A program made the translations under genes and the position numbers. Below the pieces are notes generated by a model, which was not told the origin of the DNA, made no database searches, and saw only the letters and a program-made list of their open reading frames with translations. From positions 1,842-65,841 of the forward strand of contig JAGXAG010000005.1 of assembly GCA_018971685.1 (NCBI GenBank): a stretch of DNA of 64,000 nt, in the 5' to 3' direction. Positions 1,641 to 63,592 of this stretch are shown one piece after another; within the stretch, counting starts at the first letter, position 1; every line of letters starts with the position of its first letter. The DNA is from Patescibacteria group bacterium (lineage in GTDB: Bacteria; Patescibacteriota; Minisyncoccia; Phycocordibacterales; PALSA-1337).

Positions 1641-1783
1641 GAGAGTAGCGCGGTACTTTGAAAATTAAAAGTAAGTAGAGAATGTAAATGTGCAAGTAAA
1701 CGAAAATATTCCAAATGAGCTGGAAGCGAATATTAAGTAGGCGCATGTAAAAGTGCTTTCTATTTTGTTCCGTTCGCTTATAG

Positions 1784-3722
<1,939 letters not shown>

Positions 3723-7119: not shown

Positions 7120-7521
7120 ATGTTAGCAATACGACTTCAAAGAACCGGCAGGAAGCACGAACCGACTTTTCGCGTGGTCTTGACCGATTCAAAGAACGGC
7201 CCGAAGAGCGGAAAGTATTTGAAAAACTTGGGATGGTACGATACGCGGCTCAAGAACAAAGCCGAACAATTGAAGACCGATGAAATAAAACACTGGGTAT
7301 CCAAAGGCGCGAAGCTCTCGATCACTTTGCACAATTTTCTGGTAAATCAAAAAATCATCGATGGCAAGAAGTTAAATGCTCTGCCCAAAAAGACGCCGAT
7401 CAAGAAAGAGGTTCCGGCGGAACCGGTGTCGGCACCCGCCGCACCCGTGCCCGTGCCTGCTCCTGTTGAAAAAGCCGCTCACACTTCCGCGCCTGAACAA
7501 GAAACTCCCGCAGTCAAATAA
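7120..7521 (+). CDS. rpsP: 30S ribosomal protein S16 with a Pro/Ala-rich C-terminal extension
   Basis: MLAIRLQRTGRKHEPTFRVVLTDSKNGPKSGKYLKNLGWYD. AAGGTG lies 8 nt upstream of the ATG at 7120. The C-terminal ~50 aa (PAEPVSAPAAPVPVPAPV...) are an extension. Confidence 0.85.
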   Translation: MLAIRLQRTGRKHEPTFRVVLTDSKNGPKSGKYLKNLGWYDTRLKNKAEQLKTDEIKHWVSKGAKLSITLHNFLVNQKIIDGKKLNALPKKTPIKKEVPAEPVSAPAAPVPVPAPVEKAAHTSAPEQETPAVK

Positions 7522-7533
7522 CACTGCGTTCTC

Positions 7534-7695
7534 AATAAACTTCGGCACTTCCTTTTTGTGAGCCTCCGGGACTCATGTCGTTGAATTGCAAGGTTTTGTC
7601 GCTCTCCAATCCGCGTTCGCGACAAAACCTAGCAATTCGTACTCCATTCGAACAGGTCCTCGGCTCACAAAAAGGAAGTGCCGAAGTTTATTGCG
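7534..7695. repeat. Family-A hairpin element, intergenic copy: 32-bp perfect terminal inverted repeat around a ~98-bp structured core
   Basis: Arms are CAATAAACTTCGGCACTTCCTTTTTGTGAGCC (7534-7565) and the exact reverse complement (7664-7695). The core (GGGACTCATGTCGTTGAATTGCAAGGTTTTGTCGC...GCGACAAAACCTAGCAATTCG...AACAGGTCCTC) is homologous to the cores at 32361-32457 and 60565-60661. Confidence 0.65.
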
Positions 7696-7720
7696 ACTAT
7701 TTGAGATAGTGCAGACAAGT

Positions 7721-7749
7721 TGACGAAAAACTCAATACTGATAGAATGT
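7721..7749 (+). promoter_or_regulatory. Sigma70-like promoter TTGACG-N16-TAGAAT upstream of the KH-domain gene
   Basis: Near-consensus -35 and -10 hexamers with 16-nt spacing, 47 nt upstream of the ATG at 7796. Confidence 0.45.
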
Positions 7750-9284: not shown

Positions 9285-12200
9285 ATGACTACCACTTCCG
9301 CCCCCCGTCCCAAAAAGTATTTCTCCCGCTACCAAGCTCCATTGGCGGAGATGCCAAATTTGGTAGAAGCACAGCTTGCTTCGTTCGGTCAATTTCTGAA
9401 AGAGGGCATGCCGAATCTGCTCAAGGAATTCTCTCCGATAAAAGATTACGCCGAGAAAAAGTTCGAACTCTCGCTCGGCGGTTTCGAGATAGTCAAACCA
9501 AAGTACGACGAACATTATGCCAAGAACAACAAGCAAAATTATGAAGGACAAATAAAGGTCAAAGTCACGCTCAAGAATAAATCTTTGGCCGTGGAGAAAG
9601 AACAGGAGATGTTCCTGGCAGACTTGCCGCTCATGACCGATCATGGAACTTTCATAGTAAACGGCGTGGAAAGGGTCATAGTGCCGCAGCTTGCGCGCTC
9701 TTTCGGCGTTTTCTTCACCGGCAACGAAGCCCGCGGCAAAATATATTATGGCGCGAAAATAATCCCGGCGCGCGGCGTTTGGATGGAAATAGAGACGGAT
9801 GTCGACGGGACTATATATTGCCGTATTGATCGCAAGAGAAAATTTCCCATAACCTCGCTTTTGAGAGTACTGGGTGCCGCAAAAGATGAGGAAATCCTGG
9901 CTCTATTCAAGAACGATGTCGTCGCGGAAAAAGCTATAAAACTGACGCTCTCAAAAGACCACGCCAAAACTGTCGACGAAGCTTACATGGAGATCCACAA
10001 GCGATTGCGCGACGGCGACTTGGCTACTGCCGAGAACGCTCGTTCTTTTGTTCAGGCCATACTGAGTCCGGAAAGGTACGATATTTCCAGAGTAGGCCGT
10101 TTCCGGTTCAACAAGCGTTTCAACAAGCCCATGGATGAGAAGTCTTTGGAGCGGCGTACTGTTGACAATGACGATATAGCCACTACAGTCAAACGCGTTG
10201 CGGCATTAGCCGCGGATCCGGATATGCAGGCCGATGACATCGACCATCTAGGTTCGCGACGCGTCAGATATGTTGGAGAACTGCTTGAACAGCGCGTGCG
10301 CCTAGGCTTGACTCAAATGAAAAGAAATATCATGGACCGCATGTCCACCGTTGAGCCGGATGTCACCCTGCCGGTCTCGTTTGTGTATCCTCGGCCTCTG
10401 CAGGCGCGCATCAAAGAGTTTTTTACGACCAATCAGTTGTCACAATTCATGCAGCAATCAAACACGCTCGACGAGATCGAACATATGCGTTTGATGTCAG
10501 CCTTGGGTCCGGGCGGATTGTCGCGCGAACGCGCCGGTTTCGAAGTACGCGATGTACACCCTTCGCACTATGGACGACTTTGCCCGATACACACGCCCGA
10601 AGGACCGAATATCGGTTTGGTATTGCATTTGGCGACCTATGCCAAGATAAATGATTTTGGCATGATAGAAACACCTTACGCCAAAGTCAAAAACGGCAAA
10701 GTAACAGGGGAGATCGTCTATCTGAATGCTCTTGAAGAGGAGAATTATCGTATTGTCCACGCGGCGACGCCGCATGATGCCGATGGTAATATTACCACCG
10801 ACGAAGTCGAAGCGCGCGAGAACGGCAAACCGGTTATGGTCAGCAAAGATAAAGTCGACTTTATGGATGTATCAGCCAATCAAGCGTTTTCCATAGCCAC
10901 ATCGCTTATTCCTTTTTTGAATCATGACGATGCCAACCGCGCGCTCATGGGCTCAAATATGCAAAAACAAGCCACGCCCTGTTTGGTCCCCGAGGCCCCT
11001 ATCGTTGCTACTGGCATGGAGAAAAAGGCCGTACTAGAGACAAGTCGGGTTTTGGTGGCGCCGGAAGATGGAGAGATCATGTCCGTGGATGCCAAAGGAA
11101 TATCTTTCAAATCCGCCAAAGGACAAAAGAAAGATCTCAACCTGATCCTGTTCTCAAGAACCAACGGTTTTACCGTATTCCACCAGCGGCCGGTCGTGTT
11201 TGTCGGGCAAAAAGTTAAAAAAGGTGACATCTTGGCTGACACTTCAACTTCCGATAATGGCGAGATTGCCTTGGGTCACAATGCCTTGGTGGCGTTTATG
11301 TCTTGGTCTGGTTCAAACTACGAAGACGCTATCATACTTTCGGAGCGCGTAGTCAAGAATGCCAAATGGAGCTCTATACACATAGAAGAATTTGTAGTCA
11401 ATGTACGCGACACCAAACTCGGTCCCGAAGTTACCACTTGCGACATACCGAATGTGGGCGAGGCCAAGTTGCGCAATCTGACGGAAGAAGGCATAGTGAG
11501 AATAGGCGCCGAAGTCAGGCCCGGCGATCTTTTGGTCGGCAAGATAAGTCCAAAGAGCGAAACGCAACTCACTCCCGAGGAACGCCTGCTCAGGTCAATC
11601 TTCGGCGAGAAGGCGCGTGATGTAAAAGATACTTCAAAGCGCATGGAAAACGGCAAGCGCGGCCGCGTCATTTCTATCAAAGTGTTTTCTCGAGAAAAAG
11701 GCGACAAACTCGAATCCGGTATCATCAAGAGGATATATGTAGAAGTTGCTCAGGTCAGGAATGTCTCTGTTGGCGACAAAATGGCCGGACGGCACGGCAA
11801 CAAAGGCGTTATCTCGAGGATTTTGCCGGAAGAAGACATGCCGTACATGGAAGACGGCACGCCGATCGATGTCATCTTGACTCCTCTGGGCGTGCCTTCA
11901 CGCATGAATTTGGGACAGATTTTGGAATTGCATTTGGGTTTGGCGGCAAACTCTCTGGGCTATCAAGCAATAGTGCCGCCATTTATGGGCGCTACTGAGC
12001 CGGAGATCAAAGAGGAACTTGTCAAGGCTGGTTTTGACGCTTCGGGCAAAATGAAACTGCGCGATGGCCGCACTGGGGAATATTTCGACCAGCCGGTCGC
12101 TGTCGGTTACATGTACATCATGAAATTGCATCACATGGTCGAAGACAAGATCCACATGCGTTCGATCGGCCCTTATTCGCTCATAACTCAGCAACCATTG

Positions 12201-20675: not shown

Positions 20676-21569
20676 TCAATCGCCGCAAATCAAGCATACG
20701 GCCGAACCGTTGACCTTGAAATTCATGCGCGCGGCTTGCATAACGCCGACAACTGACAGGGCGCCGTTACTTGAGATCTTCAAGCCAGCATGTTTCTCCA
20801 CCAATTCCCGCACAGATCTGATCTCTTCATTCGAAGCGATCCAGCCGTGGCCGCCGGTTTTCTCTATAAGCGGCACCAGTGTATTTTTACGGTAGGCAAT
20901 ATGGTCGACAACGGCGTCAGCGTCTGATTTTTCTTCCGGAATATCGAAAGGACCGAATGCGTCGGCAATCGGGTGACAAGACGAAGTCTGGACAATGTGA
21001 ACCTGTGTCGGCTGTTTATTTTCCAAGAATGATTGGGCGAGCGCTTGCGCCGTCGTACCAGAAGATGTGCCGATAAATACGGCGCCAACATTTTCGATAC
21101 CAGCCAATTCTTCGGCAAGCGTTTTGTAGCCGATGAGCGCTGTGTCATCTGTGGACTGTCTCAAGCTCCGCGAACCGTCGCCGGTCGCCTGCGCCAAAGC
21201 TTGCAGTGGCCGATCCTTCTTTTTTACTTGAATGTTATCGTCAACCAGTGCTTTCAACTTATCGAGCTTTGCGGGTGATATATTCGATCCGACAAATACG
21301 GCCAAATGCACAGGTCCGACCTGTGACACATGTCCGACATCGGCATTGAGCCGTTTTATGTGCATTGCGGCGGCCAAAGCGGCGTTGCCGGAAGAGGAGA
21401 TAGCGAATTTACGATCCCCGCGTTCGAGATAGTAGCTGATCATTACGGGAATGGAACGTCCCTTATGCGAACCGTAAGGGTGCAAATCCTCGCGTTTGAA
21501 GTATAGATCGGACGCGTTGATCGCTTTCGCCAACTCAGGGTAATGTCCGGTAGGGGTTATGGTATTCAC
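20676..21569 (-). CDS. PLP-dependent fold-type-II enzyme, ACC deaminase/D-cysteine desulfhydrase-like
   Basis: YFKREDLHPYGSHKGRSIPVMISYYLERGDRKFAISSSGNAALAAA resembles the KREDL...GGNKxRKLE...SxGGxQSN pattern of that family. Confidence 0.6.
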   Translation of the reverse strand: MNTITPTGHYPELAKAINASDLYFKREDLHPYGSHKGRSIPVMISYYLERGDRKFAISSSGNAALAAAMHIKRLNADVGHVSQVGPVHLAVFVGSNISPAKLDKLKALVDDNIQVKKKDRPLQALAQATGDGSRSLRQSTDDTALIGYKTLAEELAGIENVGAVFIGTSSGTTAQALAQSFLENKQPTQVHIVQTSSCHPIADAFGPFDIPEEKSDADAVVDHIAYRKNTLVPLIEKTGGHGWIASNEEIRSVRELVEKHAGLKISSNGALSVVGVMQAARMNFKVNGSAVCLICGD

Positions 21570-25162: not shown

Positions 25163-25933
25163 TCAGAACCAATTGAGGCGCCGGATTTCGGTCTTTGAAT
25201 TTCGGGCGCGTTCGAAGATACGGAGATTGTCGCCGAGCCACTTTTGTTCAACGAGCGATTTTTCCGTATCAGTGATTTCGATGGCGCCTTGCCTGACGCC
25301 GGTGCCGTATAGGCCATCTTCAGGATAGGCGACGGCGTGAGTGTAATAAAGTTTGGTCGGTGTGAAATTTTGGTAGTCGGCTTGGTGAATTATCAACACA
25401 TGATCCCTGTCATCGCCGCGCGCGGTTACTGATTTTCCGATCATGGTGATGATGTCTCCCGGCCGGATTTCTTTGATGCTGATCGTACCGCTGTTTCTAT
25501 TGTTTGCCAATGTGGCAATATCGCAGTTTTCGGCGGGACGCATGGAGCAGCGGATCTTGCCGACAATGCCTTTACAATTTACAAAATGAAGATGTTTGTC
25601 GATGACGCCTTTGCCGCGGTCTCCGTTCTCGGCGTTCAGTACATAATACGCGAATCCGGAACAGTCAATGCCGATATTTTCGTCAACCAACAACATCTTC
25701 AAGGACTGGTCGGCCAAAGAATCTGCGGTTATGTGATTTTTCGTTGCGACGGCTTGGATTTCCTCGAATATGTCTTTGGGACTGCCCTTGCCGACTCTGG
25801 CTCTGAGCGCGGCTCTCATCCGCGCGGTTTTATTGTTGAAATACGGGACCGAGCAAACGGCGTTGCCAAATTTGAAGTGTATATATTGATCGATCACTGA
25901 CAGCGCGCGATTTGAAACAGTTTTGGTGTTCAT
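25163..25933 (-). CDS. Cytoplasmic NlpC/P60 (C40) family cysteine peptidase-like protein
   Basis: IGIDCSGFAYYVL (catalytic Cys motif), then RPGDIITM...DHVLIIHQ (pGDLxff...HVgIy motif). No signal peptide or TM segment. Confidence 0.55.
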   Translation of the reverse strand: MNTKTVSNRALSVIDQYIHFKFGNAVCSVPYFNNKTARMRAALRARVGKGSPKDIFEEIQAVATKNHITADSLADQSLKMLLVDENIGIDCSGFAYYVLNAENGDRGKGVIDKHLHFVNCKGIVGKIRCSMRPAENCDIATLANNRNSGTISIKEIRPGDIITMIGKSVTARGDDRDHVLIIHQADYQNFTPTKLYYTHAVAYPEDGLYGTGVRQGAIEITDTEKSLVEQKWLGDNLRIFERARNSKTEIRRLNWF

Positions 25934-27126
25934 GGCCGTTGTTTGATAATTTCCGCGATCTCTTTCCCGCTTTTATTCAGTTTGCCGTGGCTCTCTACGA
26001 AACTGTGAATGCTTCGGATCCTCAACAGATCGGAATTTATCTTAACATTTGAATAAACGGTTGTCTTATATCCGGCGGATTCCATGGCAGAGATGGCGTT
26101 GGCGGGAACTTCGACGGTATCCTTGGTGACGCGCTGGATGATCTGTCCGCCATCGGAGATTTTAATCAGCGGCTGATCTATAGGCTGTTCGAGCAGAGCG
26201 AGCAGATGGGCTTCGAATATACTGAGGTCGGACTTCGATGTTGAGCTCAGGTCGGACCTCGGTAAACTTTGCAACTGCGATTCGAAAGTGGCCGAAGCCG
26301 GCTGGCGGGCATTGATCTCTATAAGGAAAATACGGCCGGATTGTTCGTCTTTGATGGCATCGACGCCGAAAAGGCCGCGCCAACCATCGGCGCGCATCCG
26401 TTCGCCGATCTCACGCGCAATGGTTTCAATCTGCGCGATTTCATTGTCGGCCAAGATCGTATGCGCGGCGCCCCAATCATTGCCGACGGTGCTGAACGGA
26501 TTGTCGGTAAACGGCGCCATGCCGGTTATTTGGTAACTGACATTGCCAACCATGATTTTGTTTTTCGCCGCGACGACATTTGCCGTGAATGACGGGCCGG
26601 CCACAAATGTCATCGCGCGCGCGGGGCGTTCCGTGAATTTTTCTTGAACCGCGCGCAATTCCTCGGCGGATCCTATTGAGACAGTGCCGTCGCCGGTATG
26701 TCCGTGCGCCCATTGAACGACCATTTTGGAGGATTTACACATGTCCGACATGTGCAGATCTTTGGTTGGAGCGATCTTATGCGCCGGCAAATACTTCAAG
26801 GCCAAGTCGCCAAGCCATTCAACTTGAGTTATTTTGTTCTCGATCTTCTCGGCGAGCGCTGCGGACGGATTCAATAATTCCCAACCGTTCTTGTTGCATA
26901 TATCTTCTATTTGCGAATTATTTTTGAACACCAGCACCGCCGCACCGCTGTTGCCGATAATTTTACGCGTCGAGTCAAGTTGTAACAATTCGGCGGTTGA
27001 GAGCGGCCTCGAATCGCGTCGCGAACTGTCGTTTGAGATTATTTTATAATCATCGCTTTCCGGCACGCCCTGCGCGCGTTCCGCATCCCGCGTTACATAA
27101 ACGATTTTCTTTTTGAACGGCTGCAT
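25930..27126 (-). CDS. ATP-grasp family ligase of unknown specificity
   Basis: WRGLFGVDAIKDEQSGRIFLIEINARQPAS is a typical ATP-grasp C-terminal Mg/ATP motif; ~400 aa. Confidence 0.55.
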   Translation of the reverse strand: MQPFKKKIVYVTRDAERAQGVPESDDYKIISNDSSRRDSRPLSTAELLQLDSTRKIIGNSGAAVLVFKNNSQIEDICNKNGWELLNPSAALAEKIENKITQVEWLGDLALKYLPAHKIAPTKDLHMSDMCKSSKMVVQWAHGHTGDGTVSIGSAEELRAVQEKFTERPARAMTFVAGPSFTANVVAAKNKIMVGNVSYQITGMAPFTDNPFSTVGNDWGAAHTILADNEIAQIETIAREIGERMRADGWRGLFGVDAIKDEQSGRIFLIEINARQPASATFESQLQSLPRSDLSSTSKSDLSIFEAHLLALLEQPIDQPLIKISDGGQIIQRVTKDTVEVPANAISAMESAGYKTTVYSNVKINSDLLRIRSIHSFVESHGKLNKSGKEIAEIIKQRP

Positions 27127-28829: not shown

Positions 28830-30257
28830 ATGAGCATACCGTGGCGCAAGTTTGGAGCGACCAAAATCGCCACACTGGTGATAGGAACGCTCGTTATTTT
28901 GCTTATAGGACTGTGGATAACATGGGGATTTCCTGTGGGCACCATTGATTACGCTACACAGCCTATCGCTTCCAATACCGATAATGACCCGAGCGCGGCA
29001 AGTACGGGTATTGCCTCATCAACCGAAAATGATTTGCCGTCCAAACCGATCGTGACTCATTTGCCGACACCCGATCCGCTCAAGGCTGTGTACATAACCG
29101 CTTGCACTGCCAGCGAAAGGCGTTTGCGCGACAAAGTAGTATCACTTTTCAGCGGTTCGGAATTGAATGCCATTATTATAGATATAAAGGATTACACGGG
29201 CACTCTGGCTTATTCGTCGTCCACATTACGCACTGGCCGGACCGGAAACGGCTGTGTGATCATTGACCTGCCGGAGTTTTTACATAAGCTTCATGAAAAA
29301 GGAATTTATACGATAGCACGCGTTACCGTTTTTCAGGATCCGCTATACGCCGAAGAGCATCCTGAATCTGCTATTAAAAAAGTTTCAAATCCCCAAGCAT
29401 TGTGGCGCGATCCGAAAGGTTTGGCCTATATAGATCCGGGCGCGGTTCCATTCTGGGACTATATAGTGAATATTTCCAAAGAGGCGTACTCGATAGGTTT
29501 CGATGAAATCAATTATGATTACATACGCTTCCCGTCGGACGGCGATTTGAAAGATATGAAGTTGCTGCCCGAGGATAATCGTCCGGTTCATGTGAGTGTG
29601 GCCGCCTCGATCTCAACTCCGACAAGCGCTTCGACCTCGGGTTCGTTTTTAGGTGCGGCAACTACCACATCGGCTGGCCAAAAGATAAATACCGGGCAGC
29701 GTATATTGTCGTATGAAACTTCAAAGTCGAGAATCATTACCGAATTCTTCAAATATTTGAAAGAACATATGGCGGACACGCCGGTGAAATTGTCAGCGGA
29801 TTTATTCGGCCTGACGACAAGCGCCGAGAGCGACTTGGGCATAGGCCAAATTCTGGAAAACGCCTTGCCTTATTTCGACTATGTTTGTCCGATGGTGTAT
29901 CCGTCGCACTTCGCTTACGGCTTCATCGGCATACCGCGCCCGGCGACGAAGCCGTACGAGGTGATCAGTTATTCCATGAGCCACGCGATCATGAAGGTTG
30001 ACGCGGCGTCTTCCACGCCGTCGAAATTGCGCCCATGGCTGCAGGCTTTCGATCTGGGGGCGGTTTATACGCCGGCTATGGTGGAGGCCGAGAAGCAAGC
30101 GGTCTACGATTCGGGACTTTCGAGCTGGTCTCTCTGGAATGCGGGGAGTATTTACACTTCCGCGGAATTGGCGCCGGCGACAAAGATGGTTACATACAAG
30201 AACGCTTCGACTTCCGCTGAAATCTCGGCTTCAACCGCCACTACTACAGTTAGATAA
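28830..30257 (+). CDS. Membrane-anchored putative glycoside-hydrolase-like protein (DUF4015/GHL-type TIM-barrel)
   Basis: N-terminal TM helix; KAVYITACTASERRLRDKVVSLFSGSELNAIIIDIKDYTG resembles the family's conserved start; Ser/Thr-rich C-terminal tail. Confidence 0.45.
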   Translation: MSIPWRKFGATKIATLVIGTLVILLIGLWITWGFPVGTIDYATQPIASNTDNDPSAASTGIASSTENDLPSKPIVTHLPTPDPLKAVYITACTASERRLRDKVVSLFSGSELNAIIIDIKDYTGTLAYSSSTLRTGRTGNGCVIIDLPEFLHKLHEKGIYTIARVTVFQDPLYAEEHPESAIKKVSNPQALWRDPKGLAYIDPGAVPFWDYIVNISKEAYSIGFDEINYDYIRFPSDGDLKDMKLLPEDNRPVHVSVAASISTPTSASTSGSFLGAATTTSAGQKINTGQRILSYETSKSRIITEFFKYLKEHMADTPVKLSADLFGLTTSAESDLGIGQILENALPYFDYVCPMVYPSHFAYGFIGIPRPATKPYEVISYSMSHAIMKVDAASSTPSKLRPWLQAFDLGAVYTPAMVEAEKQAVYDSGLSSWSLWNAGSIYTSAELAPATKMVTYKNASTSAEISASTATTTVR

Positions 30258-30883: not shown

Positions 30884-30971
30884 TCTCTGAAACAGTTTTT
30901 TACCCGGCGTACTATATGGAGCAGTGCGCCGGCTTTTTGTATTCGACTTTTCCGTTCCGTGGTACAATACT

Positions 30972-33074
30972 ATGCATCAATCGTTCGCGGGAACGGCAAC
31001 CGCATTTAATTCAATGGACGAGAATCGCGTAACATATTTTGCGGAGACAGACGCGCGTAACAAGCGGGTCAAATTTGGCATAAAGAGCAAGGACAGGACC
31101 AAGCATCTGTACGCCATCGGCAAAACCGGCATGGGCAAATCCACCATGTTGGAAAACATGGCCGTGCAAGACATTCAGGCCGGAGAAGGAATGTGTTTCA
31201 TCGATCCGCATGGCAAGACCGCCGACCTGCTCTTGGAATATGTGCCCAAAGAGCGCGTGAACGATGTCATATACATCGCGCCGTTCGATACCGACTTTCC
31301 GATATCGTTCAATGTGCTCGAAAGCGTCGATCCGGACAAGAGGCACTTGGTGGTGTCTGGCCTCATGAGTACATTCAAGAAAATCTGGGTCGACGCCTGG
31401 TCCGCCAGAATGGAATACATATTGACCAACACCCTTTTGGCATTGCTCGAAGCGCCGGGTTCCACGCTTCTCGGCGTGAATAGGTTGCTGTCGGACAAGG
31501 AATACAGGAGAGACATCGTGTCGAAAGTGCAGGATCCGTCGGTCAAAGCTTTCTGGACCAAGGAGTTCGCCAATTACAGCGAACGCATGGCTCAAGACGC
31601 TGTGCCCGCCATCCAGAACAAAGTCGGCCAATTCACCGCGAACCCGCTCATCAGGAACATGATCGGCCAGCCGCAGTCGTCGTTTGATTTCCGCCAGGCG
31701 ATGGATAACAGGAAAATAGTCATTATCAACCTTTCCAAAGGCCGGGTCGGCGACGAGAACATGAAGCTTTTGGGCGGCATGCTGGTGACGAAGATTTATT
31801 TGGCGGCAATGTCCAGGGCCGATACGCCGGATCGTATAGCCAGGACTCTGCCGAACTTCTATTTGTTCGTCGATGAATTCCAGAACTTCGCCAACGCCTC
31901 GTTTGCCGATATTCTTTCGGAGGCCAGGAAGTACAAGCTGAATTTGACGATCGCGCATCAATATATCGAGCAGATGGACGAGGATGTGCGCGCGGCGGTC
32001 TTCGGCAATGTGGGCACGATGATAGCTTTTCGGGTCGGCGCGACCGATGCGGAAGCGCTGGAGAAGGAATTTGCGCCGACTTTCACGATCGAGGATTTGG
32101 TGAATCTTGGATTCACCCAAATTTACCTAAAGTTAATGATCGACGGCCTGACCTCGTCGCCTTTTTCGGCGGTGACTTTGCCGCCGATCGCGCACCCGGG
32201 TTCTTCATTTGTAAAAGAAATTATCGAGGCGTCTAGAACACAATTCGCGCGGCCGCGAGTAATGGTTGAAGCTGAGATAGTGAAATTCCACGAACCGACG
32301 CAGAAATCGGCGCGGTCTGCTATTCCCGCGCCCGCAGGCGAAGCGCTTGCCGGTTCGAGTCTGCGGAACTCGCGTCGTGAAGTTGCCAGGTTTTCGGGCT
32401 CGACAGCGCGACCCGAAAACCTGGCAACTTCTACGCCGCTCAAACAGAGTCCTCGACTCGAACCGGCAAGCGCTTCGCCTGCGGGCGCGGCTGACGCAAG
32501 TACTTCAGTCGCTGCCAATATTTCCACTGATTCCAAAACTTCATCAGCGCCGTCGGCAAAGACGGATACGGTTTCCGAACCCTCTTCGGAGACGGGTTGG
32601 AGACAAAATCCGCATACTACCGACTCCCCGCCGAGAAAAGGCGGCGACGGCGGGCGTCCTGTTGTTCCGCTGTCACCGACCGTGGGTGAGGGAAACCGTG
32701 TTCGTAGAGCCGAAAAGCGCGAAGAGCTTGGACAGCATAACCAACAACATATTTCACTATCGTCGCTCAGTCGCAATCAACCCAAGCGCGACCTGAAGAC
32801 GCAATCGAAAGAGAATGTCAGTCAATTGAGAAACGCCCTGCAAGCCGCGCTCGGCAAGACCGAACGCGCCGCGCCCACTTTCTCGCCGACCGATGCCGCC
32901 GCGTCCGTTCCAGCCACAGCGCCTGCCGCGACAACCCAAAATACAATTGCCTCACAACCCGTACGGCAAAACCAAGCACTTCAAAAAACACCTGAAATTC
33001 CAAAAGTTCCGAAAACCGATAAAGTTCCTGAAGTCCCCGAAGAAGTCTTGAAAAAGGTCTTGAAAGTTGATTGA
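30972..33074 (+). CDS. Soluble VirD4/TraD-like type IV coupling-protein-family ATPase with ~250-aa low-complexity C-terminal tail
   Basis: Walker A AIGKTGMGKST; Walker B FYLFVDEFQNF; LTIAHQYIEQMDEDVRAAVFGNVGTMIAFRVGATDAEALEKEF matches the T4CP C-terminal block. No N-terminal TM. An extended -10 TGGTACAAT lies just upstream. The start is ambiguous (30972 or 31014). Confidence 0.65.
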   Translation: MHQSFAGTATAFNSMDENRVTYFAETDARNKRVKFGIKSKDRTKHLYAIGKTGMGKSTMLENMAVQDIQAGEGMCFIDPHGKTADLLLEYVPKERVNDVIYIAPFDTDFPISFNVLESVDPDKRHLVVSGLMSTFKKIWVDAWSARMEYILTNTLLALLEAPGSTLLGVNRLLSDKEYRRDIVSKVQDPSVKAFWTKEFANYSERMAQDAVPAIQNKVGQFTANPLIRNMIGQPQSSFDFRQAMDNRKIVIINLSKGRVGDENMKLLGGMLVTKIYLAAMSRADTPDRIARTLPNFYLFVDEFQNFANASFADILSEARKYKLNLTIAHQYIEQMDEDVRAAVFGNVGTMIAFRVGATDAEALEKEFAPTFTIEDLVNLGFTQIYLKLMIDGLTSSPFSAVTLPPIAHPGSSFVKEIIEASRTQFARPRVMVEAEIVKFHEPTQKSARSAIPAPAGEALAGSSLRNSRREVARFSGSTARPENLATSTPLKQSPRLEPASASPAGAADASTSVAANISTDSKTSSAPSAKTDTVSEPSSETGWRQNPHTTDSPPRKGGDGGRPVVPLSPTVGEGNRVRRAEKREELGQHNQQHISLSSLSRNQPKRDLKTQSKENVSQLRNALQAALGKTERAAPTFSPTDAAASVPATAPAATTQNTIASQPVRQNQALQKTPEIPKVPKTDKVPEVPEEVLKKVLKVD
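32329..32489. repeat. Family-A hairpin element, in-frame copy inside the T4CP-like gene (32-bp perfect terminal inverted repeat)
   Basis: GCGCCCGCAGGCGAAGCGCTTGCCGGTTCGAG (32329-32360) is the exact reverse complement of 32458-32489. Inner stem GTTGCCAGGTTTTCGGG/CCCGAAAACCTGGCAAC around loop CTCGACAGCGCGA. Encodes ...PAGEALAGSSLRNSRREVARFSGSTARPENLATSTPLKQSPRLEPASASPAG... Confidence 0.7.
32633..32700. repeat. Family-B GC-rich repeat, in-frame copy in the T4CP-like gene
   Basis: ACTCCCCGCCGAGAAAAGGCGGCGACGGCGGGCGTCCTGTTGTTCCGC...CGTGGGTGAGGGAAACC is ~80 percent identical to 58881-58958 in secA. Confidence 0.55.
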
Positions 33075-34285
33075 ATGCGATTATGCGCCGCATCCTCATA
33101 TTTTCGCTGGTGTACTATCCGAACATGATCGGCGGGGCCGAGGTGGCGATAAAAGAAATCACCGATCGGATTCCGGACAGTGAAATCGAATTCGACATGG
33201 TGGCATTGCGATTGGACCGTAAACTCCCTAAGTTCGAAAAGATCGGCAATGTAAATATTCACAGAATCGGCTGGACAGGCAAACAAAAGACATTGTCAGA
33301 TTCTTTGCCGCCATATCTGCATTTGAATAAATACGCGTATCTCGCCCTGGGACTATTCAAGGCAATTTCCTTGAATCGAAAAAGGAAATATGACGCCATC
33401 TGGTCGCTAATGGCGACATATAATTCATTCGCGGCCGTGCTTTTCAAATTGGCGCATCCGAAAATACCGTTCATCTTCACTCTACAAGACGGCGATCCGA
33501 TCCCGTATTTGAAAAGGCGCGCCCGGCCGCTATATCCAATGTTCAAGATGATGTTTACCCGCGCGGACGCCATTCAGGCCATTTCGAAATATCTTGCAGA
33601 TTGGGCGCTGGATATGGGCGCGAAATGTCCCGTTACAATCGTGCCAAACGGGGTAGATTATCGATTTTTCTCAAAACAGGTCTCCGGCGGGCGTTTAGGG
33701 GCTTTAAAAGCGCAACTAGGCAAGCGGGAAGGCGATATTTTCCTCATTACGGTCTCTAGATTGGTAGCCAAAAACGCCGTTGGCGACATCATTCAAGCTT
33801 TGAATTATTTGCCGATTAATATCAAGTTGCTCATCGCGGGAACAGGCTATGAAGAGGAAAGGTTGAAGAAGATGGTTCGCACCGGTCCGACCGGTGTACA
33901 CCGGTCGGACCGGTGCGAACCCAGCGTCATATTCCTAGGACATGTGCCGCATGCAGATCTGCCGATGTATCTCCAAGCCTCGAACATATTCATCCGCCCG
34001 TCGCTCTCCGAAGGTTTCGGCAATTCATTTGTCGAAGCGATGGCCGCCGGCATTCCCGTCATCGCCACGCCGGTCGGCGGTATTGTTGACTTTTTGCGCG
34101 ACGGCGAAACCGGACTTTTCTGTGAAGTTAGAAACCCAAGATCGATCGCGGAAAAAGTCGAACGGTTGATCGACAACGAGGGGTTGCAGAATTCTTTGGT
34201 GATAAATGCGAGGAGAATGGTTGAAGACAAATATGACTGGAATAAAATTGCCAATGAAATGAAAATGATATTTGCCGGAGTCTGA
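33071..34285 (+). CDS. Glycosyltransferase family 4 (GT-B, Glycos_transf_1)
   Basis: SLSEGFGNSFVEAMAAGIPVIATPVGGIVDFL (E-x7-E motif). Contains the in-frame 48-bp palindrome at 33875-33922 encoding VRTGPTGVHRSDRCEP. Confidence 0.85.
   Translation: MNAIMRRILIFSLVYYPNMIGGAEVAIKEITDRIPDSEIEFDMVALRLDRKLPKFEKIGNVNIHRIGWTGKQKTLSDSLPPYLHLNKYAYLALGLFKAISLNRKRKYDAIWSLMATYNSFAAVLFKLAHPKIPFIFTLQDGDPIPYLKRRARPLYPMFKMMFTRADAIQAISKYLADWALDMGAKCPVTIVPNGVDYRFFSKQVSGGRLGALKAQLGKREGDIFLITVSRLVAKNAVGDIIQALNYLPINIKLLIAGTGYEEERLKKMVRTGPTGVHRSDRCEPSVIFLGHVPHADLPMYLQASNIFIRPSLSEGFGNSFVEAMAAGIPVIATPVGGIVDFLRDGETGLFCEVRNPRSIAEKVERLIDNEGLQNSLVINARRMVEDKYDWNKIANEMKMIFAGV
33875..33922. repeat. Family-D motif as a perfect 48-bp palindrome GGTTCGCACCGGTCCGACCGGTGTA|TACACCGGTCGGACCGGTGCGAACC, in-frame in the GT4 gene
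   Basis: Exact reverse-complement symmetry. Contains the CACCGGTCCGACCGGTG motif, which is also tandemly repeated at the obg 3' end. Confidence 0.7.
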
Positions 34286-56957: not shown

Positions 56958-58160
56958 TTGATGAAGATATCGAAAAATATTCTCTTGGCGCAATATACGA
57001 CTTTCAAGATCGGCGGCCCGGCGCGCTTTTTCTGCGCAGTTGCGGATGAAAAAGAGTTGGTTGAAGCGGTCAAATTCGCCAAAGAAAAAAGTCTCAGGAT
57101 TTTCGTCCTGGGCGGCGGGTCGAACATTTTGGTTTCCGATGACGGTTTCAGCGGATTGGTCATAAAAAACGAGATGAAAGGCGTCGGCGGCGGTAATAAT
57201 TTTTATTTCAAGACGGATGAGGAAGCCGGAAACGCTCTCGGTGGCGGTAACAGTATCGACAATGAATCGATCGCGGCCGCGGCAGGGGAAATCTGGGACG
57301 ATCTGGTCAAATATACCGTTGAGAGAAATCTGGCTGGCATAGAAAATTTGTCGGGGATACCGGGTACCGTCGGCGCCGCGCCGGTGCAAAACATCGGCGC
57401 TTACGGCACCGATGCGGCCCAGACGATCGAAACAGTAAGAGTGCTTGATTTAAACAGCATGAAATTCAAGGAGCTGACAAACAAAGAATGCGAATTTGGT
57501 TACAGGGATAGTATTTTCAAGAAACAAAAAGGGCGGTATATCGTCACGGCGGTTTCATTCCGGCTCAAAAAGGGCGGCCGGGCCAATATTGACTATGCTG
57601 ATCTGCAGGAATATTTCGGCCGCAAACAAGCCCGGAATCCCATGCCGAAAACGGCCAAACTGCCGATTTTCAATCCGAAACGGTCAAGCGCCGACGGTTC
57701 CGGCGGCGCGATTGCCGGAATACACGCCGCCGCGGGCGGGTTTGATGAGCCGCTGAAGTTCGAGCCGAGCATCGTCGATGTGCGTGATGCGGTTGTGGAA
57801 ATTCGCCGGAATAAATTGCCGGATTGGACGCATTGGGGAACAGCCGGATCGTATTTCAAGAATCCGGTAGTGGACGAGGCCAAGTGCCGAGAATTGACGA
57901 ACAAATTTCCGGGAATTGTCTGTTTTCGCGAAAGCGCCGGCATGCACAAATTTTCGTTAGGATGGATCATCGACAAAATCTGCCACATGAAAGGCGTTAC
58001 CGTCGGCAATGTCGGCACGCACGATCGCCAAGCGCTCGTTCTGATCGCCAAGCCAGGCGCTTCCGCCAAAGAAGTAGTGGCATTGTCGGAAAACATCATG
58101 CGGCGCGTGCGCGAAGAAACCGGCCTTGAGATCGAGATGGAGGTGGAGTGGGTGAATTGA
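56958..58160 (+). CDS. murB: UDP-N-acetylenolpyruvoylglucosamine reductase MurB, with ~50-aa Gly/Ala-rich insert
   Basis: LAQYTTFKIGGPARFF, RIFVLGGGSNILVSD and GTAGSYFKNPVV. Insert ...KRSSADGSGGAIAGIHAAAGGFDEP... Confidence 0.85.
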   Translation: MMKISKNILLAQYTTFKIGGPARFFCAVADEKELVEAVKFAKEKSLRIFVLGGGSNILVSDDGFSGLVIKNEMKGVGGGNNFYFKTDEEAGNALGGGNSIDNESIAAAAGEIWDDLVKYTVERNLAGIENLSGIPGTVGAAPVQNIGAYGTDAAQTIETVRVLDLNSMKFKELTNKECEFGYRDSIFKKQKGRYIVTAVSFRLKKGGRANIDYADLQEYFGRKQARNPMPKTAKLPIFNPKRSSADGSGGAIAGIHAAAGGFDEPLKFEPSIVDVRDAVVEIRRNKLPDWTHWGTAGSYFKNPVVDEAKCRELTNKFPGIVCFRESAGMHKFSLGWIIDKICHMKGVTVGNVGTHDRQALVLIAKPGASAKEVVALSENIMRRVREETGLEIEMEVEWVN

Positions 58161-58237: not shown

Positions 58238-61200
58238 ATGTCATTTTTCGGCAAATTATTGGGCAATACGCAACATACGCAGAGCGTCAAACACTTCGAG
58301 CCTTTAGTAGCGAAAATCAACGCGCTTGAGGAATCTTTTAAGGCGCTTTCGGACCAAGAATTAAAGGCGAAGACGGTTGAATTTCGCAGGCGTTTGGGGG
58401 TAGCGCCATCGGTTTCGCCGCTTCCTGCAGTTGCAGAGGGTGCTCCTATGCAAGCCTCTGTAGAGGCCGTCATCCCCGGTGACATCCTGTCCGAAGCCTT
58501 TGCCGCCGTGCGCGAGGCGGCCAGGAGAACGCTTGGCCAGAGGCATTTTGATGTGCAGCTTATAGGCGGCATGGTCCTCGATTCCGGAGCGATCGCGGAG
58601 ATGAGGACCGGCGAAGGCAAAACGCTCGTAGCGACCTTGTCGGCGTATTTGAATGCTCTTTCCGGCAAAGGCGTCCACATTGTCACTGTCAACGATTATC
58701 TTTCCCGCCGAGATGCTGTGTGGATGGGGCAGATTTACGATTTTCTAGGTTTGACTGTAGGAGTAATAAACCATGAAGCCAGCTTTCTGTACGATTCGAG
58801 CATCGCGCCCCAAGGTGCAGCGGGAACGGATTCTGGACCCTCTTCGGAGGCGGGGGGTGTACCAACTTCACCTACCTCGTACTCCCCGCCGAGAAAAGAC
58901 GGCGCCGGCGGGCGTTCCGTTGTTCCGCCGGCGACGATCGTGGGTGAAGAACCCGTTCCCGCGAAGCCGACAGGACGCGATACCGATGTTCGTGTCGACC
59001 ATAAACTCGACAAGGAGCGTGACGATGTTGGCGCGTTCAAGGTCGTCCACGAATTTTTGCGGCCGTGTACCCGCCGTGAAGCCTATGCCGCCGATATCAC
59101 CTACGGCACCAACAACGAATTTGGCTTCGACTATCTGCGCGACAACCTCGAATATTCTCCGGCCGCTTTGCGCCAACGGCCATTCAACTACGCCATAGTC
59201 GACGAAATCGACTCCATCTTGATCGACGAGGCGCGTACGCCCTTGATCATCTCCGCGCCATCGCGCGACGCCGAGAGCACTTACAAACAGTTCGCCGCGC
59301 TTGTTGTTTCATTCAAGGAAAATGAAGACTATGAAAAAGACGAGAAGAGAAAAGCCATATCGCTTTTGCCGGCCGGCATAGAGAAAGCCGAGAAAGCGCT
59401 CGGCATCGACAATATTTACACCAATGCCGGCATAAAATATGTGCACCATTTGGAGACGGCGGTCAGAGCCAAAGCGCTGTTTAAGCGCGACAAAGAATAT
59501 GTCGTCAAGGACAACCAGATAGTGATCGTCGATGAATTCACCGGCCGATTGCAGCCCGGACGAAGATGGTCGGAAGGATTGCACCAGGCCATCGAAGCCA
59601 AAGAAGGCGTGGTGATACAGCAGGAGTCCAGGACTTACGCCACGATCACATTCCAAAATTTCTTCCGCATGTATCCGAAGCTTTCCGGCATGACCGGCAC
59701 GGCGGCAACTTCCAGCGAAGAATTTTATAAAGTCTACGGCTTGGATGTGTATATGGTGCCGCCGAATGTGCCGGTGGTGCGCGCCGATAAGAACGACCAA
59801 ATATTCAGGACCGAGCCGGGCAAATTCAAGGCCATTGCCAGGAAAGTGAAAGAACTGCACGACAAGGGCCAGCCGGTTCTGATCGGCACGGTGTCGATCG
59901 AGCGCAACGAGCTCTTGTCACAATTCTTGAAAGCCGAAGGCATACCGCATACGATGTTGAATGCCAAGCCGGAATATGCCGAGCGCGAAGGCGAAACGGT
60001 GGCGCAGGCGGGCAAGAAAGGCGCGGTCACGATCGCGACCAACATGGCGGGCCGCGGCGTGGACATCAAGCTCGGCGGCAATCCGAATACCAAGGAAGCG
60101 TATGAAGAAGTAAAACGCCTGGGCGGGCTTTTCGTCTTGGGCACGGAAAGGCACGAAGCGCGGCGCATCGACAATCAGCTTCGCGGGCGATCGGGCAGGC
60201 AGGGCGATCCGGGCGAGACGCAATTCTTCGTTTCGTTGGAAGACACGCTGATGCGAGTGTTCGCGTCGGATACCTTGAAGTCGATGATGGGGCGCCTGGG
60301 CATGGCGGAAGACGAGCCGATCGAGCATCGGCTGATTTCTAAGGCGTTGGAGAGCGCGCAGGAGAAAATAGAGGGTTTCAATTTCGATTCGCGCAAGCAT
60401 GTGCTGGAATTTGACGATGTGATCAATACGCAACGCTCGAGTGTGTATTCGAGGCGCAGGAGATTGCTCTTGGGCAATGTTGACGATGTGGAAAAAGAGC
60501 TGTTTGAGATTTTGGGCTTGAATGACACCGCCGCCTCGCCGGACGGAACATTCTCGGCCGCGAGTCTGCGGGACTCGCGTCGTGAAATTGCAAGGTTTTC
60601 CGGCTCGACAGCGCGACCGGAAAACCTTGCAATTTCAACGCCGCTCAAACAGAGTCCTCGCCTCGCGGCCGAGAATGTTCCGTCCGGCGAGGCGGCGGCT
60701 GACGCGATTGATGGAAATTCTCCCTTTGGAAAAGGGGGTGCTCCGGAGCGAAGCGGAGGGGCGGGGGATTTTGAGTCGGTAATTCAAAAGAAAATCTCCG
60801 AATTCGGACGCGATAACTTCTTGAATGCGGCGCGAATAATATTACTGCAGACGATTGACATGTACTGGGTGGAGCATCTGGAGGTGATGGATTACACCAG
60901 GGGCAGCGTGAATTTGCGGGCGTACGGGCAGAGGGATCCATTGGTGGAATACAAAAAGGAGGGTTTGCGGCTGTTTCGGGAAATGCAAAACGCCGTGCGC
61001 GAGCAGGTTGTGCGCATTTTGCCGAACATCGTGCCGGTCATTCAGGGCCAGGCGGCGCAAAACATTTCATCGAACGCCGCGCCGAAGAATTCGGTTCTAA
61101 CTCCCGAAATGCGCGAAGTGCACGAAAACGCGCGAATCATCGGATCGCAAGACGGCTCCGGCAAAGCGGTTCAGTCTGCCAAAAAGGAGCCGCAGTTTGG

Positions 61201-62554: not shown

Positions 62555-63592
62555 ATGTCATTCATCGACGAAATAACTTTCCATGCATCAGCCGGCCGCG
62601 GCGGCAATGGGGTTGTCCGCTGGCGTCATGAGAAGGCGAAAGAATTCGCCGGCGCGGCGGGAGGCAACGGCGGCCGAGGCGGTTCGGTATTCGTGCGCGC
62701 GGTTAGGGATATCAATATCCTCTCGCGGCACAAAACGACCAAAAACTTCAGGGCGGGGAACGGGGAAGACGGCATGGGTCTTTCCAAGCACGGCAAGAAT
62801 GGCGAGGACTTTTTCATAGACTTGCCGATCGGTTCGATCGCCGTCAATCGCGAAACCGGACGGACGGTGGAATTGCTCGAAGAAGGCCAGACGATATTGA
62901 TCCTTCACGGCGGGCGAGGCGGACTGGGCAATGAGCACTTCAAAGCATCGACCAATGTTAAGCCTGAACAGTCGACAAATGGAATGCCCGGCGAAGAAGC
63001 CGACTTTACCGTCGAGCTGAACTTGATCGCCGATATCGGACTGGTCGGTTTGCCCAATGCCGGCAAATCGAGTTTGCTCAATGCTATGACCGGCGCGCGC
63101 GCCAAAGTCGCCTCCTACGCTTTCACCACCCTCGATCCCAATCTCGGAGTCTTGCCGGGCGGCTTTATCGTCGCTGACATTCCCGGCCTCATCGAAGGCG
63201 CCGCCGAAGGCAAAGGCCTCGGCGACAAATTCTTGCGGCACATAAAACGCACCAAGATGATCATGCACCTGATCTCCCTCGAAGAAAGCAATAATATCTC
63301 CAATAAAACTGTGGATAACTCGTATCGCGTAATTCGTCGCGAGTTGGAAAAATTCGGTAACGGTCTTGCCGACAAGCGCGAAATAATTGTCCTGACAAAA
63401 ACCGATCTCGCTAGCCCAGAAGAGGTTGCAGCCGCCGAAGCAACATTACTAAAGTATAATAAAGAAATATCAAAGGTTACTATTCTGGACGACTATTCCG
63501 TTAAGAAATTGACCGAAGCCGTCATCAAGAAGGTCTCGGTCACCGGTCCGACCGGTGCCACCGGTCCGACCGGTGTTTGCGCGGGCGTATAA
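62555..63592 (+). CDS. obg: GTPase Obg/CgtA with C-terminal GPTG tandem motif
   Basis: MSFIDEITFHASAGRGGNGVVRWRHEKAKEFAGAAGGNGGRGGSV (Obg fold), GLVGLPNAGKSSLLNAMT (G1) and DIPGLIEGA (G3). The C-terminus VSVTGPTGATGPTGVCAGV is encoded by a tandem CACCGGTCCGACCGGTG motif. Confidence 0.9.
   Translation: MSFIDEITFHASAGRGGNGVVRWRHEKAKEFAGAAGGNGGRGGSVFVRAVRDINILSRHKTTKNFRAGNGEDGMGLSKHGKNGEDFFIDLPIGSIAVNRETGRTVELLEEGQTILILHGGRGGLGNEHFKASTNVKPEQSTNGMPGEEADFTVELNLIADIGLVGLPNAGKSSLLNAMTGARAKVASYAFTTLDPNLGVLPGGFIVADIPGLIEGAAEGKGLGDKFLRHIKRTKMIMHLISLEESNNISNKTVDNSYRVIRRELEKFGNGLADKREIIVLTKTDLASPEEVAAAEATLLKYNKEISKVTILDDYSVKKLTEAVIKKVSVTGPTGATGPTGVCAGV
63541..63575. repeat. Family-D motif CACCGGTCCGACCGGTG in direct tandem (x2) at the obg 3' end
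   Basis: CACCGGTCCGACCGGTGCCACCGGTCCGACCGGTG; the same motif forms the 48-bp palindrome at 33875-33922. Confidence 0.6.

Follow-up and report, generated by a model that had tools for sequence, protein, structure and literature searches.

A perfect 48-bp palindrome lies in frame within a GT4 glycosyltransferase gene in a 64,000-nucleotide stretch of DNA (hereafter the window) from a Patescibacteria group bacterium (assembly GCA_018971685.1, contig JAGXAG010000005.1, positions 1,842 to 65,841 of the forward strand). It is a pair of inverted 17-nt units, and the hairpin repeats of the window are a family with the consensus CAC-NN-GTC-S-GAC-N'N'-GTG, which also includes a direct doublet at the 3' end of obg. 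With roughly even confidence, we read the palindrome as an inverted doublet of a REP-like hairpin family of this Paceibacteria strain, remodelled locally by template switching or slippage.

The 48-bp palindrome in the GT4 gene

The two arms of the palindrome, GGTTCGCACCGGTCCGACCGGTGT and ACACCGGTCGGACCGGTGCGAACC, are 24 nt each, 100% complementary and separated by a spacer of 0 nt. An earlier note on this DNA had described a perfect palindrome in frame with the GT4 gene at 33875-33922; re-examination found zero mismatches and placed it one base lower, at 33874-33921. That note had also judged such a structure very unlikely by chance, and this is borne out both by the expected number of such palindromes in 64 kb (~5e-10) and by the predicted DNA fold (-31.8 kcal/mol, z = -10.2). 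The sequence is neither low-complexity nor ubiquitous. The two units within it are inverted, with a central C in one and G in the other and TA between them, and at the RNA level the pair is predicted to form one 22-bp stem (-50.8 kcal/mol, z = -8.4). The palindrome is in frame with the GT4 open reading frame (ORF): conserved GT4 sequence and the downstream motifs are intact and in frame on both sides of it, and a single S separates VRTGPTGVHRSDRCEP from VIFLGHV. The 48 bp are identical in an independent assembly of the same strain (L001; comparison loci carry L numbers throughout), where contig JAGWKR010000008.1 (GCA_028865255.1) shows 100% identity over 11.9 kb, palindrome included. An assembly artefact is therefore an unlikely source of the palindrome.

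To place the palindrome in the protein, 84 GT4 orthologues were aligned, with DNA drawn from 80 metagenome loci and relatives. The segment G.GY.E...V.FLG spans 26 amino acids in 71 of the 84 orthologues, compared with 34 in the window. The net gain of 8 amino acids equals 24 nt, or one palindrome arm, and removing either arm brings the loop back to exactly 26. Since only 24 nt have been gained, the palindrome is not a 48-nt insertion, and half of it sits on native loop positions. Thus, where the earlier note had proposed an insertion adding 16 residues, the in-frame palindrome is real, and the net gain is half that size (26 to 34 amino acids). Within the palindrome are also 6+6 nt (GGTTCG/CGAACC) that the obg copy lacks. 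A perfect inverted copy that carries flank bases, with a gain of one arm, is what a template switch leaves, and the GT4 palindrome is best read as the product of a 24-nt inverted duplication at this locus.

In an AlphaFold2 model of the GT4 protein (93 sequences; mean predicted local distance difference test score (pLDDT) 92.3, predicted template modelling score 0.90), the palindrome falls in a coil of the C-terminal Rossmann domain that connects helix 258-267 with strand 282-286. This loop, with a pLDDT of 51, is the sole low-confidence block of the model. The 71 orthologues of basal loop length showed no conserved hairpin at this site (mean z = -0.05; longest stems 4-8 bp), which excludes a conserved RNA or DNA structure at the position of the loop.

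A family of 17-nt hairpin units

The 17-nt core, CACCGGTCCGACCGGTG, is an 8+1+8 palindrome in its own right, a property that the earlier note did not remark. Because the unit is self-palindromic, its orientation can be read only from the central base. As that note had observed, the core recurs in tandem at the end of obg; it is exact at both copies, each with a central C and with one C between them. The resulting Obg tail is SVTGPTGATGPTGVCAGV, of whose 17 residues 12 derive from the doublet, which contributes TGPTGATGPTG. Comparison with orthologous Obg proteins confirmed the extension, in that 80 of 120 terminate 1-3 amino acids beyond the last helix. The predicted RNA fold here (-39.7 kcal/mol) lies directly upstream of a weak terminator-like hairpin. 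The doublet is also present in further sequence of the strain (JAGWKR010000010.1 of GCA_028865255.1; L128), and the obg site is 100% identical to that of the window. Together, the two genes contain four identical copies of the 17-mer, and 29.6 kb separate the two loci. The sequences on either side of the GT4 and obg copies bear no relation to each other (alignment p = 0.36 and 0.60), and the units alone are common to both; a longer shared element that included the flanks was rejected on these non-significant alignments.

Variant units were found at further sites; those at 21309, 26738 and on L128 were not among the observations of the earlier note. The 21309 unit lies in a variable loop of a pyridoxal phosphate (PLP)-dependent enzyme (ORF 20676-21569, minus strand; peptide DVGHVSQVGPVH), and its arm positions 4-5 are altered on both arms with complementarity retained. 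This loop is 1 amino acid longer than that of the closest orthologue, P0241, whose peptide is similar; the site was accordingly rejected as a clean insertion, and its membership of the family rests on pattern statistics. Two variable loops of an ATP-grasp enzyme (ORF 25930-27126, minus strand) carry units, with the second, degenerate doublet reading CCGAGGTCCGACCTGAG..CGAAGTCCGACCTCAGT in the sense of the gene. Both loops are 4 amino acids longer than the basal length, which 73 and 94 of 120 orthologues have. The L128 unit is in the 5' untranslated region (5'UTR), 7 nt upstream of a gene for an HTH_17/MerR-type protein. It is missing in the relative L126, where the downstream protein is nearly identical, and a role as operator for the adjacent gene was rejected on this ground. 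The coordinates of these features, and of the larger nested palindromes (family A) treated below, are collected in Table 1.

Table 1. Positions of the GT4 palindrome, the related units, their two principal host genes and the family-A elements. Positions are those of the window unless a locus is named.
Feature	Position	Strand	Remarks
GT4 glycosyltransferase gene (host)	33071-34285	+	Annotated start 33083; Pfam PF00534/PF13439
48-bp perfect zero-spacer palindrome	33874-33921	.	Arms 33874-33897 and 33898-33921; encodes VRTGPTGVHRSDRCEP
Unit 1, CACCGGTC-C-GACCGGTG, 8+1+8 palindrome	33880-33896	.	Read T-G-P-T-G
Unit 2, CACCGGTC-G-GACCGGTG, inverted copy of unit 1	33899-33915	.	Read H-R-S-D-R-C
obg gene (GTPase ObgE; host)	62555-63592	+	C-terminal tail of 17 amino acids
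Direct doublet of the unit before the obg stop codon	63541-63575	.	Copies 63541-63557 and 63559-63575, period 18
Variant unit CACAGGTC-C-GACCTGTG and degenerate CACATGTCCGACATCGG	21309-21343	.	21309-21325 and 21327-21343; direct, period 18
Variant unit CACATGTC-C-GACATGTG	26738-26754	.	ATP-grasp variable loop 1; peptide HMSDMC
Degenerate direct doublet of GGTC-S-GACC units	26221-26262	.	ATP-grasp loop 2; peptide PRSDLSSTSKSDLS
Unit ACACATGTC-G-GACATGTGT	L128:4879-4897		Same strain, 4.9 kb past the window end
Family-A nested palindromes, 165-171 bp	7530-7696, 32326-32490, 60528-60698		Core about 95-105 nt

Relative to chance, the units are strongly over-represented. In the window CACNNGTCSGACNNGTG is found 6 times where 0.00 are expected, and the strain has one further copy at L128:4880-4896. 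A search for the 17-mer that allowed as many as 2 mismatches gave 9 matches, compared with 0.00 in 100 dinucleotide shuffles, and 7 palindromes of the window are centred on GTC-N-GAC with a stem of at least 6 bp, compared with ~0.3 in shuffles. Across 75 kb of the strain, the family has a minimum of 8 units at 5 loci, and 4 of these loci are inside ORFs. NN and N'N' are complementary in every unit (CG/CG, AG/CT, AT/AT). Such co-variation of the arm positions speaks for pairing within a hairpin, or for one arm being copied from the other, and not for a pair of independent half-sites for a protein. The peptides derived from the units differ by gene (TGPTG, HRSDRC, HMSDMC, QVGPV), and conservation is therefore at the level of the nucleic acid. 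No direct repeat indicative of a target-site duplication was seen beside any copy. The net length changes at the sites are +4, +4, about +1 to +4, +8 and +12 amino acids, an irregularity which argues that the units are not the simple cut-and-paste products of a fixed element.

Related structures were observed outside the strain. A survey of 1.03 Mb of Paceibacteria loci gave 19 palindromes centred on GTC-N-GAC with a stem of at least 6 bp, compared with ~3.7 expected; the source strain, with its 75 kb, contributes 8 of these. Perfect palindromes with a stem of at least 10 bp number 167 in 1.08 Mb of such loci, compared with roughly 7 by our own estimate of chance. Inverted doublets of GTC-N-GAC units are found in frame at L181:4823-4863 (peptide PRSDLKSDSQGQTLA) and, between genes, at L188:5811-5850, where the doublet is nested in longer outer arms (L188:5780-5880). 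The same GT4 loop holds lineage-specific palindromes in the closest clade, namely TGTCGGAGG-GTAGA-CCTCCGACA in L124 and a 9-bp stem in L131, and in L123 it has imperfect arms of roughly 29 nt with a longest perfect stretch of 16 bp and a 37-nt centre. The two ATP-grasp loops that have units in the window contain TGGTC-C-GACCA and ATACGGAGGTC-T-GACCTCCGTAT in L121.

Several other palindromes with a shared centre or base were noted in these loci. In L124 (10791-10813 and 11174-11200; the same in L125) two perfect palindromes have the common centre AGG-GTAGA-CCT and arms that differ, one in frame in the GT4 loop and the other directly past the GT4 stop codon. Perfect zero-spacer palindromes of 46-52 bp with the centre (G)TACTA|TAGTA(C) and differing arms occur at L157:1343-1394, L157:1973-2020 and L154:753-798 in more distant Paceibacteria, where they appear to be mostly intergenic. 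Palindromes of the type CACTTGG...CCAAGTG, such as CACTTGGGAGTC-G-GACTCCCAAGTG, are present at L163:3137-3161, L167:8030-8282, L167:8720-8748 and L199:13633-13968; this type has the CAC/GTG base of the window unit and, in L163, also a GTC-S-GAC tip.

The exact units themselves were found in none of about 60 kb of the nearest relatives, and the double unit had 0 matches in 241 million JGI metagenome records. A scan of IMG/VR for both unit types returned isolated single matches and no doublets. In a scan of contigs, the 17-mer gave at least 119 single matches in unrelated high-GC genomes among the matches listed. One such contig, from Methylobacterium tarhaniae (L102; NZ_LABZ01000321.1), is 1.4 kb long; a collagen-like TG[AP]TG repeat gene takes up its whole length and includes the 17-mer five times. 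The sporadic presence of the 17-mer in high-GC genomes and phage contigs is explained by such collagen-like TG[AP]TG repeats, which contain it. An Rfam scan of the window returned only the 16S rRNA and two tRNAs at threshold, and around the palindrome solely sub-threshold matches to generic miRNA precursors. No gene for a transposase, HUH, RAYT or IS200-like protein was found among 30 window ORFs searched with Pfam or in the precomputed annotations of L001 and L128.

Origin of the units and competing explanations

We infer that template switching or slippage acts as the local mechanism and that units disperse between loci in a hairpin-dependent manner. At the GT4 locus, one unit would already have been present within a loop of the ancestral length of 26 amino acids. 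During replication, a strand or template switch mediated by a hairpin would then have copied 24 nt in inverted form, comprising the 6-nt flank, the unit and one more base, to give a perfect zero-spacer palindrome and 8 additional residues in a disordered loop. At obg, the unit would have been duplicated head to tail by slippage of 18 nt, with the doublet adding 12 residues. Perfect symmetry, the lack of a spacer, the included flank bases, the gain of one arm and the 18-nt obg pair are what template switching and slippage would be expected to leave. The units may be spread or maintained by a process that recognises hairpins, either an HUH/RAYT-like enzyme or ectopic templating, and in a gene-dense genome they would survive only at harmless places such as variable surface loops, a C-terminal tail or a 5'UTR. 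The in-frame position of the intragenic copies, and their placement in permissive loops, then follow from the purging of other events from essential genes. The effect of the units on their host proteins is probably neutral. The predicted 22-bp perfect stem in the mRNA (-50 kcal/mol) may lower expression of the GT4 gene, and the 48-bp DNA palindrome should be prone to deletion.

A number of observations weigh against this REP-like reading. No RAYT, IS200-like or other transposase gene was seen among the 30 window ORFs or in the annotations of neighbouring contigs; target-site duplications are not visible; and the length changes at the sites match no fixed element length. The obg pair is direct, whereas REPINs are inverted. 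The copy number comes from 75 kb, so that a genome-wide abundance of the REP type is an extrapolation. The double unit is represented in none of the JGI records, and since the units are missing from about 60 kb of the closest relatives, the exact family may be specific to the strain. Either arm of the GT4 palindrome could be the ancestral one.

The REP and REPIN sequences of Pseudomonas and Enterobacteria are short palindromes of 16-40 nt that are mobilised by RAYT transposases (PMC3116915, PMC3337134). The window family resembles them in comprising dispersed short palindromes that occur as singlets, as inverted doublets forming one long hairpin and as tandem clusters, without target-site duplication, with compensatory arm changes and in strain-specific families. 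The inverted doublet typical of REPINs is seen in the GT4 pair and also in L181 and L188; the obg and 21309 pairs are direct. The conserved base of REPs in E. coli is GTAG, compared with CAC in the window unit. The window units are also perfect palindromes, unlike the imperfect REPs; the GT4 doublet lacks a spacer, and a RAYT gene was not seen. In addition, nearly all REPs are extragenic: in SBW25, only 14 of 1,067 16-mers overlap a gene (PMC3116915). Of the 5 loci of the window family, by contrast, 4 are intragenic.

Rickettsia palindromic elements (RPEs) are about 150 bp long and encode one family-specific conserved peptide in one frame (reviewed in PMC10969869). As in RPEs, the palindromic repeats here are in frame in unrelated housekeeping genes of a reduced genome, are translated and sit at tolerant positions of the fold. 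They differ in size (units of 17 nt, doublets of 35-48 nt), in using several frames and in having no conserved peptide and no fixed loop gain. Because they lack defining features of both REP/REPIN sequences and RPEs, we assign the units to neither family. Nor do they qualify as miniature inverted-repeat transposable elements, since there is no flanking direct repeat and no fixed inserted length. The window family may also resemble the double-hairpin elements of Allomyces and other fungal mitochondria, small mobile elements which consist of two adjacent hairpins and occur between genes, in variable regions of rRNA and in frame in protein genes of a compact genome; those elements are mitochondrial, eukaryotic and unrelated in sequence to the window family. 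Both REPs/REPINs and RPEs are known from Proteobacteria; a literature search found no report of REP/REPIN-like or RPE-like repeats in Patescibacteria or the candidate phyla radiation (CPR). If the family were confirmed genome-wide, it would mean that even very small genomes packed with genes retain selfish or structural hairpin repeats, which persist hidden in permissive protein loops and provide one source of the lineage-specific insertions typical of CPR proteins.

Among the alternatives, a purely local origin would have each palindrome made in situ by quasi-palindrome correction or a template switch, with no dispersal and with the shared 17-mers a matter of coincidence or convergence. In E. 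coli, according to Ripley, Lovett and colleagues, quasi-palindrome template switches reportedly turn an imperfect inverted repeat into a perfect palindrome, or lengthen it into one, in a single event. This would explain the perfect GT4 arms, the flank bases inside the palindrome and the net gain of one arm; consistent with it are also the small length changes of the other loops, which are not multiples of the unit, the different palindromes in the same loops of relatives, and the over-representation of perfect palindromes in Paceibacteria loci (by our own estimate of chance). However, template switching is a mutational mechanism, which leaves the same 17-mer at unlinked loci unexplained. Two loci with unrelated flanks contain four copies of the identical 17-mer between them, CACATGTC-S-GACATGTG is found at two further loci, the pattern has an expectation of 0.00, and a purely local process would not converge on one sequence. 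Shared 17-mers at unlinked loci with unrelated flanks, together with the kept frame and the complementary arm changes, indicate that these were not independent local events, and we regard a wholly local origin as unlikely.

The units could instead be 17-bp sites recognised by a dimeric DNA-binding protein, be it chromosome-organising, parS-like or an operator-binding protein, with their placement in coding loops explained by scarce intergenic space. The strict conservation of CAC..GTC.GAC..GTG around a variable NN fits such an explanation, as do the clustering of five loci within about 50 kb of a core region (rpoBC, dnaG, secA, obg, 16S) and the copy 7 nt upstream of the HTH_17/MerR-type gene, and tandem pairs could allow cooperative binding. 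A dimer that binds duplex DNA has, however, no need of the co-variation of NN with N'N', and L126 has no such palindrome ahead of the HTH gene even though its protein is nearly identical. With 71 GT4 orthologues of basal length having neither structure nor motif at the site, and with differing arms in relatives, we hold this explanation to be somewhat less probable than a local origin.

Less probable again is a function of the hairpins in mRNA, whether in cleavage by RNase III, in ribosome pausing, in stabilising the 3' end or in termination. The predicted RNA folds are highly stable at both the GT4 site and the 3' end of obg, as given above. On the other hand, the units are not confined to one orientation with respect to transcription, the hairpin of the GT4 loop is not conserved across the 71 orthologues, and no Rfam family was found at threshold.

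A slightly weaker candidate still is that the CCGG-type units were copied from a gene with Gly-X-Y (GPT/GAT) repeats elsewhere in the genome. The obg tail GPT-GAT-GPT-G is a perfect run of four Gly-X-Y triplets and 3 of the 4 CCGG units are in that frame; the five copies of the 17-mer in the L102 gene, which by eye has a string of roughly 31 nt, GGTCCGACCGGTGCCACCGGTCCGACCGGTG, in common with the obg tail, would agree with this. Against it, no collagen-like ORF is present in the 75 kb, and the four triplets of the obg tail compare with hundreds of residues in L102. The AG/CT and AT variants keep CAC..GTC.GAC..GTG yet encode no Gly-X-Y, the double unit is not in the JGI metagenomes, and in a window of about 50% GC such GC-rich codon strings are not the norm.

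An inverted-duplication error of assembly at a palindromic k-mer is very improbable: contig ends of three other assemblies of the strain do lie at or within about 20 nt of family-A copies, but the region is identical in separate assemblies, the frame and downstream GT4 motifs are intact, the obg doublet is direct, and by our reasoning the 17-nt self-complementary stretch of the unit is below the usual assembly k-mers.

Family-A elements and other features of the window

The larger nested palindromes of family A share a core whose ends are TCTGCGGRACTCGC on the 5' side and GCTCAAACAGAGTCCTC on the 3' side. Their outer arms in the window are copy-specific and 32-37 nt long, being perfect in two copies and having one mismatch in the third. 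Of the three copies, one is translated in frame as part of a TraG/DUF87-like protein and one as part of SecA, both in the same frame and with the peptide SLRxSRRExARFSGSTARPENLAxSTPLKQSPRL; the third is intergenic. With a length of 165-171 bp and the same frame and peptide in two proteins, they are a closer analogue of RPEs than the 17-nt units. L121 has intergenic relatives with the same core ends at 1877-2052, 7519-7729 and 11213-11393, with arms of 30-35 nt; family-A-like elements were in none of about 80 more distant loci. The perfect palindromes and these larger nested ones coincide with contig breaks in the public metagenome-assembled genomes of this strain, so that the quality of assembly and annotation is affected.

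The earlier note had suggested that palindromes such as the 48-bp one might serve as landing sites which become the outer arms of family-A insertions. We found no evidence for this. The outer arms of the six family-A-type elements (three in the window and three in L121) contain no unit and have no similarity to the 48-bp palindrome, and at two intergenic sites where the element is present in L121 but not in L124, L124 has no arm-only palindrome. Nested palindromes do exist, as at L188:5780-5880, and the suggestion is better called unproven than wrong. The possibility that the outer arms are native flank was rejected, in that both arms are missing at L124 by comparison with L121; the regions have diverged, which makes this soft evidence.

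A further process may be considered, in which conserved centres nucleate hairpins and the arms are copied from adjacent DNA, so that palindromes are actively generated from sequence seeds in Paceibacteria. We regard it as a speculative and rather unlikely possibility. The seeds would be GTC-N-GAC here, GTAGA or TACTA|TAGTA in relatives, and the roughly 100-nt family-A core, and the process would yield perfect copy-specific arms of 8-37 nt. If true, it would constitute a previously undescribed source of in-frame insertions that constantly remodel surface loops of essential proteins in these reduced genomes (SecA, Obg, glycosyltransferases), and it would also account for identical family-A cores with unique perfect arms.

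The TraG/DUF87-like protein and SecA also share an in-frame insert, D1 (32563-32689 and 58821-58947), of 127 nt and 77% identity. Its imperfect inverted arms are at 58820-58840 and 58942-58962, and its peptide is ...SPPRKxGxGGRxVVP.... At the SecA site of D1, L126 has a different palindromic insert with 69-nt arms that are 74% complementary.

Other palindromes were seen near the start of the window. A perfect 37-bp palindrome (18+1+18), CAATCTTTGAGGTGCCAA-T-TTGGCACCTCAAAGATTG, occupies 1269-1305 in the ORF6N-domain region of ORF 1020-1601, and a 27-bp palindrome (12+3+12) is at the start of the same ORF (1003-1029). The 16S rRNA gene (1780-3702) is 1923 nt long compared with a model of 1533 positions, with about 390 nt of insertions that include an inverted repeat (3266-3344) and a GAGGTC-G-GACCTC palindrome (3308-3320).

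Several proteins of the window are longer than those of the closest relatives: DUF4015 (28830-30257; 475 compared with 395 amino acids), MurB (56958-58160; 400 compared with 342) and the TraG/DUF87-like protein (30924-33074; 716 compared with 587). The extra length in all three comes from low-complexity inserts rich in Ser, Thr, Ala and Pro. The proposal that all strain-specific protein inserts are hairpins was rejected, given the z scores of the inserts in DUF4015 (-1.5) and MurB (-0.95).

Across the whole window, where about 15.5 occurrences would be expected, the hexamers AACGTT, ACTAGT and GACGTC occur 0 times and CACGTG, TACGTA and TAATTA 1 time each, which suggests avoidance of restriction sites. 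GCCGGC, CGATCG and CGGCCG are about 4-fold over-represented.

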